Shown: positions 37,507 through 40,841 of the stretch, piece after piece
Layout of the letters: each line of letters opens with the position of its first letter
How positions within the stretch are numbered: the first letter of the stretch is position 1
The notes under the pieces: model-generated
What the model saw: only the letters and a program-made list of their open reading frames with translations
Database searches by the model: none
Told to the model about the DNA's origin: nothing
Made by a program: the position numbers and the translations under genes
DNA from: a virus
Reading direction: 5' to 3' (one strand)
IMG/VR virus record: IMGVR_UViG_3300033145_001546
Location: 1 to 64,000 of that record
DNA: 64,000 nt

Positions 37507-38366
37507 TAAGAAAAAATACTCCAATTGAAACTTACGATGTCCGGGGAAGGACGGTGTATGTTAAAAGGGAGGACCTGTGCACTGAGCCTCCAGGTCCCCC
37601 TTTTAGCAAATGCCGGGGGCTGTATGCCAAATTGAAAAAGATGCGGGACGAGGGCGTGGAAGTAGTTGGTTATGTAGAGACCCCAATTTCGATGGCGGGC
37701 TGGGGTGTGGCGTGGATAGCAAAAAAATTAGGTTTGAAAGCTGTAATCTTTGATCCACAATACCTCCACACACCCCCCGCCACCATTTTGATACATAGAG
37801 AAAAGTGGAAACAATACAACCCTGATATTATCCCCATTACAGCTGGAATGACCTGTGTGAATCAGCACATTGCAAAGAAGATGCTGAAAAAAGAGTATGG
37901 ACGGAAAGCTGTGATGCTTCCTATCGGCATCCCTTTTCAAGAGACAATAGAGGAAACGAGCAAAGAATTTCTGCGACTCGTAGGAAAAAAACCATGGTTA
38001 TTTCTTAAGCATATTGTGGTTTGTGTGGGGTCCGGAACGATTTGTTCCGGGCTGTTGAAAGCCCTGCAAGGAATAGGAGGAGATATAGAATTGATAGGGG
38101 TGATGGCCTACGATAAAAATATGAGGAAGAAAAGGAAGTCTATTTTCATCAAAGCTGGGGCGAAGGACCAAGGCACCCTTTTCCCCTCCAAAGTAGATTT
38201 CAGATTAGTAAATGAGAAATGGGAATACACCGAATCGTCAACTGTTGACTGCCCTTTCCCTTGTCATGCTTACTACGACTTGAAAGCATGGGAATGGCTG
38301 GTGAAGAATATTCACACTTTGAAAGGGACAGTACTGTTTTGGAATATAGGGAGTGAAGCAGTGTGA
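37503..38366 (+). CDS. Fold-type II PLP-dependent enzyme
   Basis: VYVKREDL...FSKCRG, CVGSGT, YYDLKAW, LFWNIG. Confidence 0.8.
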   Translation: MIRKNTPIETYDVRGRTVYVKREDLCTEPPGPPFSKCRGLYAKLKKMRDEGVEVVGYVETPISMAGWGVAWIAKKLGLKAVIFDPQYLHTPPATILIHREKWKQYNPDIIPITAGMTCVNQHIAKKMLKKEYGRKAVMLPIGIPFQETIEETSKEFLRLVGKKPWLFLKHIVVCVGSGTICSGLLKALQGIGGDIELIGVMAYDKNMRKKRKSIFIKAGAKDQGTLFPSKVDFRLVNEKWEYTESSTVDCPFPCHAYYDLKAWEWLVKNIHTLKGTVLFWNIGSEAV

Positions 38367-39601
38367 GTTATTATGACCTGAGAGCCGAAGTTGCTAAAAT
38401 CATACCCCGTGTGCAATCTCTACGCACTAAGAAGCAGGCCCCCAAGCCTGTAAAGGAAAAGGGACGCAAAAGTGGGTACTCCGAATTCAAGCTCAATGTT
38501 GGAAATTGGGTAAAGCAAGAGCGATTGTTGAACACACAAGAGGTTAATTCCTTTGTCGAGGTAAGTTGTAGGGCCGCAGCCTGTCCCATGCCATTGAATT
38601 TGGATGTATGGGATGGGCTGCTTTGTGTTGCAAAGGGACAAATGATAACTACTCAGAGAGGTGAAAAAAGAATCGAGGACGTAAAAGTCGGAGACATGGT
38701 ATTATCCTTTAATGAGTCTTCTAAAATTTTGGAATGGAAGGAAGTCATCCAAACAAATTCGACAATCAAAAGAAATATGATAGACATCGAAACGGAAAAA
38801 GGAATTCTGACAGTAACAGCGGACCACCCTGTTTATACTCAAAGGGGATGGATTGGGGCGGGGGACTTAAAAGAAACTGATTATATTTACGAGCAAGCCA
38901 AAAAAATACCTTGGAACAAAGGAATCCCCAGAACTCTAAAGGAAAAAAAGAACATCAGTAGTGGTATATCTAAAGAATCCCGAATGAAAAGCTCCAAGCG
39001 AATGAAACATCTTTGGAAAAAGGGAAAATACAAAGATCATGTGGGGAAAACTAATCCATCTAAAAGGCCCGAAGTTGCTCGTAAAATAGGGGAAGCTAAC
39101 CACAGAAGAAAAGTGACCGAAGTTACGAGAGAAAAGATAAGACAAAGTAAATTGGGAAAACCTGGTCCTGCTGTTTCGGAAAAGACTAAAAAATTATATT
39201 CCGAAAGAATGAAACGGGACAATCCTATGCATAGAAAGGAAGTATTAGAAAATCATCCCGTATTAAAGACGGGCAGATATTACATATCTCAGGGAGAGAA
39301 AACTTTATCAATCTTATTTCAAAAAATGAAATTGAAATATAAGCACCAAAAACAAATGGCGAAAGAGATTGGTTATTACACAGTTGATTTTTTCTTTCCT
39401 AAATATAATAAGATCATAGAATTCGACGGACATCAAAGTCATAGAGAGCATCCCGAAAAGGACGAAAAAAGGGATGCTTATATAAAAAAACGCTATGGAT
39501 ACACTACTTTGAGGATAGTTCCAATGGAATTAAATAATACGAATCGACCTAAATTGCTCTCCAAAATAAGGAATTTTCTGGATGGAGTTGAAGAGGCTTA
39601 A
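38363..39601 (+). CDS. Radical SAM enzyme 2 N-extein (87 aa) fused to split-intein N-part and an endonuclease
   Basis: CPMPLNLDVWDGLL|CVAKGQMITT..., block B TADHP, basic NUMOD3-like repeats, Vsr/DUF559-like VDFF...IIEFDG..H...DEKRD. Confidence 0.85.
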   Translation: MSYYDLRAEVAKIIPRVQSLRTKKQAPKPVKEKGRKSGYSEFKLNVGNWVKQERLLNTQEVNSFVEVSCRAAACPMPLNLDVWDGLLCVAKGQMITTQRGEKRIEDVKVGDMVLSFNESSKILEWKEVIQTNSTIKRNMIDIETEKGILTVTADHPVYTQRGWIGAGDLKETDYIYEQAKKIPWNKGIPRTLKEKKNISSGISKESRMKSSKRMKHLWKKGKYKDHVGKTNPSKRPEVARKIGEANHRRKVTEVTREKIRQSKLGKPGPAVSEKTKKLYSERMKRDNPMHRKEVLENHPVLKTGRYYISQGEKTLSILFQKMKLKYKHQKQMAKEIGYYTVDFFFPKYNKIIEFDGHQSHREHPEKDEKRDAYIKKRYGYTTLRIVPMELNNTNRPKLLSKIRNFLDGVEEA

Positions 39602-39701
39602 AATCAAAAGTCTTCGTAAATATCGTAAGAAAACGACAGTTTATGATATTACGGTGAAAGATAATTCCAACTTTTTTGCCGGGGGAGTTTTGGTTCATAA
39701 T
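38624..39701 (+). mobile_element. Naturally split intein with a homing endonuclease on the N-fragment
   Basis: Cys1 at 38624; IntC 39582-39701 ends VYDITV...NFFAGGVLVHN followed by Cys+1; the fragments are in different frames. Confidence 0.85.
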
Positions 39702-40841
39702 TGCCCCTTCGGTTGTAAATATTGTTATGCAAATGCTTTCCGGGCCTCCCTATATACGGCATTCTTTGATAACGCCAAGACGATGGGCATGCGGCATTGC
39801 AATCCTAAGAAGTACAAAAAGGAAATGGACATCCTGCTAAAAGTCCGGGGCAAGGACCCACACGATATCAAAGGGGATGTAGCCAAGGCCATAGCAATGG
39901 AAATTCCTATCCGGTTTGGAATACGATTTGAGGACTTCTTGGCAGAGGAGGCCGAAGCAGGAATCAGCTTAGAGATGCTGGAGTATTTGGCTGATAATGA
40001 ATACCCACTAATGATAAACACCAAGGCCGATTTAGTAGGCAAGAAACGGTATGTCCGGGCCTTGTCCCGAAATAAAGGCAAGACAGCAGTTCATATTACT
40101 TTGATAAGTAGCAACGAGAAACTGTTGGCCGAATTAGAACCAGGGGCACCGACTTACGAAAGACGGATATGGGCAATGAAGAGACTATCTGATGCAGGGG
40201 TGAGAGTGGTAGCTCGGATAGAACCATACTTGCCTTTCTTGACAGATGATCCCTCAGAAGTGTCTATGTATATGGAAGACTTGAAAGCAATTGGTGTGAA
40301 ACACATCACTTTCGATGCTTATTCATACACAGCTAAAAATCCGGGCATCAAGCAATCTTTTGTCAACGCCGGGATAGATTACGAGAGGATGGTTTTGGTA
40401 GGTTGTGATTCTCAGGCATTGGGAAGTTTGATGCTGGGAGAATTCATGAAGATATTTCGGAAAAACGGGTTCAGCTGCTCCACCTTTGATATGGGGAATG
40501 CACCGGACAACGACGACTCTATATGTTGCGAGGTAGGGAACTGGTTTAAGGGTGGATATAACTATGGGTGTACTGTATACGCAGCCAGATTCATCAAGCA
40601 GCGTGGCAGTAAGAGCACTTCGTGGGGCGACTTTGAGGGTTGGGTGAATGAAAAAGGTGGATTCTTGTCCGAGACCTTAAAAAGAGAGGTGCACGAACTT
40701 TGGAACTGTCAGGGGAACAGTGCCTATTCGCATTCGTGGGCCAGAGGCATGGTAGCTGTAGGGAGCGACCGGAATGGGTTGGTTTGGAAATTCGATGATA
40801 GTGATTTTAGGCAGGACATTTTGGAGAATTTGAAAGGATAA
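39582..40841 (+). CDS. Split-intein C-part (40 aa) plus radical SAM enzyme 2 C-extein
   Basis: HN|CPFGCKYC, INTK, LEPGAPTYERR, ARIEPYLP; own SD (TAAGGA) and ATG. Confidence 0.88.
   Translation: MELKRLKIKSLRKYRKKTTVYDITVKDNSNFFAGGVLVHNCPFGCKYCYANAFRASLYTAFFDNAKTMGMRHCNPKKYKKEMDILLKVRGKDPHDIKGDVAKAIAMEIPIRFGIRFEDFLAEEAEAGISLEMLEYLADNEYPLMINTKADLVGKKRYVRALSRNKGKTAVHITLISSNEKLLAELEPGAPTYERRIWAMKRLSDAGVRVVARIEPYLPFLTDDPSEVSMYMEDLKAIGVKHITFDAYSYTAKNPGIKQSFVNAGIDYERMVLVGCDSQALGSLMLGEFMKIFRKNGFSCSTFDMGNAPDNDDSICCEVGNWFKGGYNYGCTVYAARFIKQRGSKSTSWGDFEGWVNEKGGFLSETLKREVHELWNCQGNSAYSHSWARGMVAVGSDRNGLVWKFDDSDFRQDILENLKG

Follow-up and report, generated by a model that had tools for sequence, protein, structure and literature searches.

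Does a phage gene that is divided into two overlapping reading frames by intein and endonuclease sequences encode a naturally split intein, or is it a broken gene or an assembly artifact? The gene lies in a window of 64,000 nucleotides (positions 1 to 64,000 of the IMG/VR virus record IMGVR_UViG_3300033145_001546), and its product resembles radical SAM enzymes. With a probability of roughly 0.82, we read the locus as a phage "fractured gene" in which a genuine, naturally split intein resides in an SPL/Rv2578c-like radical SAM gene.

Anatomy of the locus

The features of the locus all lie on one strand:

38363-39601, plus strand: ORF1, 412 aa, GTG start, TAA stop at 39599-39601, comprising N-extein, IntN and endonuclease
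38363-38623, plus strand: N-extein of the radical SAM enzyme, 87 aa, ending in DVWDGLL
38624-38896, plus strand: IntN, 91 aa, with Cys1 in block A (CVAKGQ) and TADH in block B
38897-39601, plus strand: homing endonuclease domain in frame with IntN, with NUMOD-like repeats and a Vsr-like/DUF559 nuclease
39567-39572, plus strand: Shine-Dalgarno (SD)-like TAAGGA, 9 nt 5' of the IntC ATG, within the endonuclease codons for K-I-R-N-F-L
39582-39601, plus strand: 20-nt overlap of the endonuclease ORF end and the IntC ORF start, read directly from the sequence
39582-40841, plus strand: ORF2, in the +1 frame relative to ORF1, comprising IntC and C-extein
39582-39701, plus strand: IntC, 40 aa on its own ATG, net charge +7, with block F VYDITVKDNSNFFA and block G VLVHN
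39702-40841, plus strand: C-extein of the radical SAM enzyme, 379 aa plus stop, opening with CPFGCKYC (39702-39725)

The initial annotation had IntN begin at the Cys at 38624 in an ORF that stops at 39601, and both coordinates match the sequence; Cys1 is residue 88 of ORF1, encoded by TGT at 38624-38626. It also described a basic 40-aa IntC with its own ATG in the +1 frame, a TAAGGA motif and an in-frame TAA (39567-39569) 15 nt upstream of that ATG, and a terminal HN (39696-39701) followed by CPFGCKYC, in which Cys+1 (39702) is the first Cys of the CxxxCxxC motif. Each of these was found again when the sequence was re-read. In Pfam searches, residues 88-179 of ORF1 match Hint/PT-HINT, residues 7-40 of ORF2 match the C-terminal end of Intein_splicing, and Radical_SAM follows from ORF2 residue 38 onward. 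The predicted spliced product joins 87 and 379 residues into a protein of 466 aa. Scans for promoters, terminators and RNA folds near the junction returned nothing notable.

Host enzyme and intein-free homologues

ORF2 matches Radical_SAM (PF04055) with E=1.2e-9 and 38.9 bits against a cut-off of 29.5, and its CPFGCKYC motif stands at the start of the C-extein. Profiles of the Rv2578c, PA0069 and SPL families in NCBIfam score 38-49 bits, against cut-offs of 430-700; for the intein-free homologue P0018 the scores are 48.7 bits where the cut-off is 430 and 48 bits where it is 360. The window enzyme is only a distant relative of the Rv2578c and PA0069 families and not a member.

A comparison with intein-free homologues, proposed in the initial annotation, bears out the predicted junction. 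Uninterrupted homologues of 505 aa (L001), 474 aa (L002) and 465 aa (P0018) read DGLL-CPFGCKYC without a break. P0018 shares 88.5% identity with the window N-extein and 88.1% with the C-extein, and is identical to the exteins over the 26 residues around the splice junction. L001 and L002 also align with the N-extein, as do those of the 80 IMG/VR loci in the family scan that have no intein.

The C-extein matches phrog_13321, as does a paralogue at 36346-37506, and the presence of a second gene from the same PHROG only 0.9 kb upstream raises the possibility of a real split in a dead or dying gene, with halves that no longer splice and a phage that relies on the paralogue or forgoes the enzyme. 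An endonuclease fused to IntN is, moreover, unprecedented and might hinder assembly of the halves. Against this, both ORFs are intact, no splicing or cluster residue is missing, and the exteins retain 88% identity to the intein-free enzyme P0018. Selection on the exteins points the same way: their dN/dS in related split loci is 0.03-0.13. For the intein parts it is 0.15-0.56, a range calculated from very few substitutions. The fused architecture is also maintained in a relative, P0002 (414 aa) and P0121 (422 aa), whose two ORFs are arranged like those of the window at 61-80% identity per segment; these two are treated as neighbors solely because the Logan contig given for each is 17351 bp long, and the adjacency of P0123 and P0011 is likewise taken from the identical size of their contigs. 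Because intein-free relatives carry the paralogue too, it is not a replacement. A dead gene is thus an unlikely account of the locus.

Intein halves and splicing residues

Several lines of evidence identify the intein halves. IntN matches the Pfam families PT-HINT, Hint and Hint_2, a phmmer search of the PDB retrieves the Spl DnaX mini-intein and the NrdJ-1 split intein, and Foldseek finds NrdJ-1, gp41-1 and Npu DnaE for the IntN part of a model whose pLDDT there is only ~47-76. Cys1 is invariant across all site-a copies, site a being the insertion site of the window. Block B has the form TxxH, reading TADH here and either TNDH or TEDH in the related loci, and blocks F and G read VYDITVKDNSNFFA...VLVHN, followed by Cys+1. 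Cys1, TxxH, HN and Cys+1 are kept in every copy compared, and with the HINT fold they give the locus the sequence and fold features of a class-1 intein. Conservation of Cys+1 is not independent evidence for splicing, because this residue is needed anyway as a cluster ligand. A contiguous mini-intein of 130 aa (P0016) occupies the identical site and runs unbroken across the position where the split forms are interrupted.

IntN has a net charge of -1 and IntC of +7 in the window, and the P0002 IntN is at +6; charge complementarity between the window IntN and IntC is weak. Pairing of IntN with IntC could also be slowed by the endonuclease that IntN carries, which is bulky and basic.

Fragmented phage enzymes that work without ligation are known, an example being the Aeh1 nrdA case cited in PMC2677866 and PMC3045599, and the intein halves might by analogy with the endonuclease-split NrdA of phage Aeh1 serve as a non-covalent dimerization module in a two-chain enzyme that never splices. 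In such an unspliced complex the first cluster ligand would directly bear ~370 aa of intein and endonuclease sequence. Dimerization alone would have no use for Cys1, for the His of block B or for the terminal Asn, yet they are invariant in every copy, and we consider this arrangement quite improbable.

The in-frame endonuclease

Roughly 235 residues follow IntN in the same frame and constitute a fused homing endonuclease, on which the initial annotation was silent. DUF559 matches ORF1 residues 308-402 (E=1e-9), and the domain contains the NUMOD-like repeats IPWNKGIPRT and LGKPG. It is 52-64% identical to free-standing endonucleases of 249-335 aa. Within alignment A2, E177, D179, H184, D191 and D195 (domain numbering) are invariant, and the invariant nuclease residues are present in the window domain. 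The nuclease domain has a pLDDT of ~86-96 in an AlphaFold2 model, for which Foldseek reports 3r3p (the I-Bth0305I catalytic domain) at TM 0.72, 3hrl at TM 0.74 and Vsr (1cw0) at TM 0.53; a profile match to 3hrl has E=1.8e-6. Together, the model and the profile match indicate a predicted Vsr-like nuclease fold. The domain may be active and may promote homing; site-specific cleavage of an intein-less allele has indirect support in the nearly identical cassettes of L135 and L136, whose exteins have diverged.

The two ends of the domain differ in their relation to the free-standing forms. A Zn-finger-like N-terminus (CxCGCG...GHH) found on those forms is missing from the window endonuclease, and in both the window and P0002 IntN runs on into the endonuclease in frame with no stop between them. 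Free-standing relatives terminate at KIRxFLxG plus a few residues, and the ORF1 stop coincides with this end.

Recurrence of the split

A separate-ORF intein at the same site as in the window occurs in at least three further IMG/VR lineages (L126; L135/L136/L145/L211; L199/L201/L202). IntC is exactly 40 aa and begins M-[EKNQ]-[LVT] in P0121, P0122, P0123, L126, L135, L136, L145 and L201, and a separate IntN stops at the aligned position, after 91 aa in L126, L135, L136 and L145 and after 92 aa in L201. The position of the IntC ATG is conserved in the split relatives, with an SD-like motif inside the last endonuclease codons: the equivalent site reads AAGGAGG in L135, L136 and L145 and GGGAG in L126 and L201. 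An AGGA, GGAG or GAGG tetramer precedes 33 of the 68 window ORFs, compared with 11% of random positions. The ORFs of related loci overlap by 11-35 nt.

The endonuclease itself varies among these loci. L126, L135, L136 and L201 have the full three-ORF form with a free-standing endonuclease, and in L145 the endonuclease is cut down to a 43-aa remnant while the IntN and IntC ORFs are intact; the endonuclease can be lost and the split intein kept. Between L135 and L136, dS is 0.62-1.46 in the exteins and 0.017-0.08 in IntN, endonuclease and IntC, and judged by these substitution rates the cassette looks recently transferred. The gene family also includes contiguous mini-inteins and an endonuclease-deleted locus, and at a second site (site b) relatives have a mirror fusion in which an endonuclease-like domain is joined to IntC.

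These relatives bear directly on whether the split is real. A 1-nt sequencing or assembly indel at 39567-39601 could have divided a contiguous intein with an endonuclease domain: the record is a metagenome assembly, both frames are open together over only ~35 nt containing short A and T runs, and a contiguous intein with a DUF559 domain exists in P0127, a different radical SAM protein of 25% identity. Nevertheless, P0002/P0121 and the further IMG/VR lineages show an equal stop and restart, and an indel is very unlikely because independent assemblies, 46-80% identical, would all need the same error. The ORF1 stop is, in addition, the natural C-terminus of free-standing endonucleases, and the IntC ATG and SD motif are conserved. 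A search for a longer, fully fused form of the window intein yielded only P0127, which is weak evidence in the same direction.

Programmed +1 frameshifting by ribosomes within the 20-nt overlap, giving a contiguous precursor for cis-splicing, is hardly credible. The +1 frame of ORF2, the GCT TAA A at the end of the overlap and the upstream SD-like element would suit it, but a slippery motif is absent, the RNA around the site folds like shuffled sequence (z = -0.22), and relatives vary in frame (-1 in L126, +1 in L135) and in overlap while always keeping the ATG.

Searches aimed more widely returned little. IMG/VR scans with exact ORF1 peptides or the block-F pattern and a scan of GTDB genomes for the IntC/CxxxC junction pattern gave no match. 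A metagenome scan with an over-general block-F pattern gave at least 120 stretches, with no radical SAM gene among the matches listed. In the phage GenBank collection nothing matched at the DNA level, and at the protein level there were just two weak matches of ~25% identity.

Comparison with known systems

The arrangement as such has precedents, which the initial annotation did not mention: fractured genes combine split inteins with Vsr-like endonucleases (gp41-1, NrdJ-1, IMPDH-1 and others; Dassa et al. 2009, PMC2677866). Like them, the window locus is of phage origin, has all parts on the same strand, is split at the canonical endonuclease insertion point and has a Vsr-like/NUMOD endonuclease whose 3' end overlaps and supplies the IntC start. 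In 15 fractured-gene loci the endonuclease and IntC overlap by 6-69 bp (PMC2677866), a range that includes the overlap of the separate, same-strand ORFs seen here. Unlike them, the window endonuclease is in frame with IntN and without the Zn-finger-like N-terminus, and the locus is not among the 26 of Dassa et al. In every one of those loci the endonuclease has an ORF of its own and there is a non-coding gap of 27-51 nt (PMC2677866); a free-standing endonuclease ORF after such a gap is found in L126, L135, L136 and L201 and is absent from the window and P0002.

The cyanobacterial DnaE split intein (Npu/Ssp) shares the class-1 Cys1/Cys+1 pair and a basic IntC of ~36-40 aa, and Foldseek matches the Npu DnaE structure 4qfq. 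The window IntC resembles the Npu DnaE IntC in length and layout. DnaE halves, however, are encoded at distant loci without an endonuclease, whereas the window halves are adjacent and overlapping, with an endonuclease on IntN.

MoaA is a radical SAM enzyme. The MoaA intein resembles the one described here in lying within an oxygen-sensitive radical SAM enzyme; it differs in being contiguous. According to the review PMC10663303, splicing of the Pyrococcus abyssi MoaA intein can depend on redox state (Callahan et al. 2011), through a trap that needs an N-extein Cys bonding to Cys1. The window has G-L-L at -3 to -1 of site a, and the Cys-trap geometry (C-x-x before Cys1) occurs only in site-b inteins of relatives. 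The suggestion in the initial annotation that trans-splicing could gate the modification pathway is unsupported speculation: site a is without a Cys at -3, the known MoaA redox-trap residue.

Two further systems have single elements in common with the locus. NCBIfam NF038136, an intein-containing Rv2578c family radical SAM protein, shows that the catalogues already include intein-bearing radical SAM proteins of the SPL-like kind; the window protein falls far below its cut-off and is not a member, and the model presumably describes a contiguous intein. I-Bth0305I, an EDxHD homing endonuclease (PMC3239194), likewise has NUMOD repeats and a Vsr-like nuclease. I-Bth0305I, however, stands alone and is encoded in a group I intron, whereas the window domain is attached to the C-terminal end of one intein half. 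A literature search found no paper connecting split inteins with radical SAM enzymes.

Proposed origin and mechanism

The proposed origin begins with a mini-intein at site a, immediately 5' of the first Cys of the CxxxCxxC cluster motif, which may have been invaded at the canonical endonuclease insertion point by the gene of a Vsr-like, putatively EDxHD-type, homing endonuclease. The invading gene would with its 3' end have provided the stop codon, the SD motif and the ATG for IntC. Loss of the 5' flank, in the window phage and in the P0002/P0121 relative, would then have brought the endonuclease into frame with IntN.

In the resulting locus, ORF1 and ORF2 would be co-transcribed and probably translationally coupled. 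IntN may pair with the basic 40-aa IntC for class-1 trans-splicing through Cys1, TADH, the terminal HN and Cys+1, joining ...DGLL to CPFGCKYC..., and the 466-aa spliced enzyme would then be able to bind a 4Fe-4S cluster. The released IntN-endonuclease/IntC complex might home into intein-less alleles. The naturally split intein put forward in the initial annotation thus holds, with the split recurring in diverged phage loci that keep the splicing residues; assembly of the enzyme by trans-splicing, the other half of that proposal, is a prediction from sequence.

A more far-reaching possibility is that the IntN-endonuclease is a working "nicked" bifunctional intein, caught half-way in endonuclease capture, with Cys+1 as a splicing checkpoint. 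We regard this combination as doubtful. If it is true, cluster loading and trans-splicing compete for the thiol of Cys+1, the first 4Fe-4S ligand, and this competition would make splicing an obligatory checkpoint before enzyme maturation. This one radical SAM family displays contiguous mini-inteins, a three-ORF fractured gene, an endonuclease-deleted locus, the IntN-endonuclease fusion at site a and the endonuclease-like-IntC mirror fusion at site b, and would then preserve most of the proposed capture route.

Implications

The locus leaves the general understanding of inteins unchanged. What is new relative to Dassa et al. is the radical SAM host and the endonuclease fused in frame to IntN, together with contiguous mini-inteins, an endonuclease-deleted locus and the site-b mirror fusion in the same gene family. 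The published model only postulated that a fractured gene would become a contiguous bifunctional intein once the flanks of its endonuclease were lost. The window and P0002 represent the loss of one endonuclease flank, and the site-b relatives appear to show the loss of the other; with both forms in one gene family, the capture pathway could be studied there.

The family also offers practical material: a set of related split inteins with the Cys1/Cys+1 pair and an IntC of 40 aa, along with contiguous and endonuclease-free versions for comparison. It is reasonable to regard the window intein as a possible protein-ligation tool, as the initial annotation did, adding one more to an already large set. 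Among the hosts of natural split inteins, a radical SAM enzyme would join the enzymes of replication and repair, and in it the splice nucleophile is also an Fe-S ligand.

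Anatomy of the locus

The radical SAM gene lies in a 77,255-bp virus record, of which the window covers the first 64 kb, and is divided between two reading frames that overlap by 20 nt.

38363-39601, + strand: ORF1, 412 aa; N-extein, N-terminal intein half (IntN, from the Cys at 38624) and endonuclease; TAA stop at 39599-39601
39567-39572, + strand: SD-like sequence TAAGGA
39582 (ATG) to 40841, + strand: ORF2, 419 aa, +1 frame; C-terminal intein half (IntC) and C-extein; in-frame TAA 15 nt upstream of the ATG
39696-39725, + strand: splice junction HN/CPFGCKYC in ORF2 (slash, splice site)

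The window sequence bears out every coordinate of the initial annotation (Cys, stops, ATG, TAAGGA and HN/CPFGCKYC). In Pfam searches, ORF1 displays Hint-type domains (residues 88-179) and DUF559 (residues 308-402), and residues 7-40 of ORF2 match the intein splicing model over its final 34 positions, with Radical_SAM beginning at residue 38. All three cluster cysteines reside on ORF2.

Intein-free alleles demonstrate, at the level of sequence, that the window gene carries an insertion. Two IMG/VR relatives, L001 (505 aa) and L002 (474 aa), are each one continuous gene reading ...NLDV[WY]D...C-P-[FY]-x-C-K-Y-C... The related protein P0018 (465 aa) is 88% identical to the two extein halves and matches all 26 residues flanking the DGLL/CPFGCKYC junction. 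A family-wide IMG/VR scan yielded 121 relatives, and inteins are present in 14 of the 80 loci kept.

Evidence for a natural split

Evidence for the split includes an independent pair of proteins with the two-ORF layout, P0002 (414 aa; N-extein, IntN and endonuclease, with its stop at the same place as that of ORF1) and P0121 (422 aa; beginning MEL..., then IntC and C-extein), each on a 17,351-bp Logan contig and taken as neighbors from this equal size only. Their identity to the window is 70% in the N-extein, 66% in IntN, 65% in the endonuclease, 80% in IntC and 61% in the C-extein. The same intein occupies the same site in separate ORFs in L126, L135/L136/L145/L211 and L199/L201/L202, in the order N-extein plus IntN, endonuclease in another frame, and IntC plus C-extein. 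Two further ORFs (P0122 and P0123) are headed by IntC, which is exactly 40 aa long in all split copies at this site (site a, before the first Cys of CxxxCxxC) and always starts from a Met of its own at one conserved position.

The junction DNA is homologous across the split loci. The ORF1 stop coincides with the C-terminus of free-standing endonuclease relatives (249-335 aa), a few residues past K-I-R-x-F-L, and the codons of this motif contain AAGGA in the window, AAGGAGG in L135, L136 and L145, and GGGAG in L126 and L201. In the window and related split loci, 8-10 nt separate the SD-like motif from the IntC ATG, and the ORFs overlap by 11-35 nt. The window phage does use such sites, because 33 of 68 window ORFs have an SD-like tetramer ahead of them, versus 11% of random positions.

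A programmed frameshift across the ORF1/ORF2 overlap is unlikely, as the split loci vary in frame relation and overlap length, yet all keep the ATG, and an RNA-fold scan of the junction found no special structure. A 1-nt sequencing error that split a fused frame is very unlikely, since it must recur in independent assemblies differing at a fifth to half of their residues. The naturally split intein of the initial annotation stands, with the same split in P0002/P0121 and several phage lineages and with the IntC start and ORF1 end conserved; comparative evidence that the split is real is strong.

Probable trans-splicing and the host pathway

The class 1 splicing residues (Cys1, block B TxxH, the terminal His-Asn and Cys+1) are present and invariant in all copies, and IntN resembles the solved split inteins NrdJ-1, gp41-1 and Npu DnaE. 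A contiguous 130-aa mini-intein in P0016 occupies the same site, unbroken across the window's break point. Extein dN/dS in the split loci is 0.03-0.13. These comparisons support a split intein whose host enzyme is probably made by trans-splicing. ORF1 and ORF2 would be co-transcribed; a scan around the junction found no + strand terminator between them. ORF2 would use an SD and ATG of its own, and its initiation may be coupled to ORF1 termination. The intein halves would then associate and trans-splice to yield the 466-aa enzyme, setting free an IntN-endonuclease/IntC complex.

The suggestion that splicing gates the pathway is not supported. The MoaA intein redox trap depends on an N-extein Cys bonding to Cys1 (PMC10663303), whereas site a in the window has G-L-L instead. 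Given that all three cluster cysteines are on ORF2, splicing and binding of the 4Fe-4S cluster could compete for Cys+1.

The surrounding cluster (36346-43869), flanked by a DnaB-like helicase and a sliding clamp, contains two paralogous radical SAM genes (phrog_13321), a threonine-dehydratase-like PLP enzyme, a PAPS-reductase-like gene, two small unknown ORFs and a 277-aa ORF with a weak LPG_synthase_C match. L001, L126, L188 and L211 share the conserved order of PLP gene then radical SAM gene. The cluster may encode a nucleotide or DNA modification pathway.

Related inteins and probable cassette mobility

Site b, before the third Cys, holds a contiguous mini-intein in P0017, P0020, P0024, L140 and L188, and a split form in other loci.

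L151: 2332-4730
L174: 2314-4751
L165: 1897-4733 (L166 and L167 have the same arrangement)
L206: reverse strand

In these split loci IntN has its own ORF, and a Zn-finger/NUMOD-like domain of ~200 aa, a putative nuclease, is in frame with IntC and the C-extein (612-618 aa in all), mirroring the IntN-endonuclease fusion of the window. A different radical SAM protein, the PflA-like P0127 (748 aa, from JGI and annotated as a pyruvate formate lyase activating enzyme), has a contiguous intein with a DUF559 nuclease domain before the second Cys (GCNWL/intein/CRYC). Together with sites a and b, this indicates that inteins target all three radical SAM cluster cysteines. A radical SAM host is not new in itself, as an NCBIfam model exists for intein-containing Rv2578c-family radical SAM proteins; a literature search found no paper linking split inteins with radical SAM enzymes.

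A similar IntC in P0126 (295 aa; MKKLKIKSIKK...YDITVADNHNFLANNVLVHN/C) precedes an unrelated C-extein, so relatives of the window intein sit in other phage genes. The block F motif YDIT[VI]..N.NFFA turns up very frequently in metagenome contigs (at least 120 stretches, L004-L123); among the matches listed, many are in ORFs headed by IntC, with stop codons just upstream and diverse C-exteins.

Mosaic divergence is seen among L135, L136 and L145 (IntN at 2407-2679 or 3063-3335; IntC at 3501-3620). The exteins of L135 and L136 have diverged to dS 0.62-1.46, against only 0.017-0.08 for IntN, endonuclease and IntC, the pattern expected after recent homing. L135 and L145 have near-identical N-exteins (dS 0.04) but diverged C-exteins (dS 0.68). 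These mosaics suggest recent homing with co-conversion or recombination. The L135 record (2657-3620) has ambiguous bases (X in translation) in the endonuclease and second IntC codon, a data-quality issue of that record and not of the window.

The endonuclease and the fractured gene model

Dassa et al. 2009 (PMC2677866) described 26 "fractured gene" loci from marine metagenomes, with IntN, a gap of 27-51 nt, a free-standing endonuclease gene of the GIY-YIG or a new Vsr-like family, and then IntC; in 15, the endonuclease 3' end and the IntC start share 6-69 bp. In their proposal, the upstream half takes its stop codon, and the downstream half its start codon, from the invading endonuclease gene. 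By its sequence features, the window's locus belongs to this known kind, a fractured gene with a split intein and a Vsr-like endonuclease. It departs from the published loci in a single feature, an endonuclease encoded not as a separate ORF but as an in-frame extension of IntN, and this fusion is the one structural novelty.

The domain, a predicted endonuclease, is of the Vsr-like type. Its profile matches the DUF559 structure 3hrl, as well as Pfam DUF559, and the nuclease part of an AlphaFold2 model (pLDDT ~86-96) aligns structurally with the catalytic domain of I-Bth0305I (3r3p, TM 0.72), 3hrl (TM 0.74) and Vsr. The invariant nuclease residues are retained; the CxCGCG...GHH N-terminus and first NUMOD repeat of free-standing relatives are absent. 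The L201 endonuclease likewise lacks CxCGCG...GHH, and its ORF adjoins the IntN stop codon, so a small change could yield an IntN-endonuclease fusion. L145 (3330-3535), compared with L136 (2657-3535), has lost the endonuclease codons from within CKCG as far as ...VENPERD; a remnant of 43 aa is left, and the IntN and IntC ORFs are intact. This deletion matches the step in the published model at which the endonuclease is lost, and the window's IntN-endonuclease fusion matches a stage midway through the capture that the model postulates.
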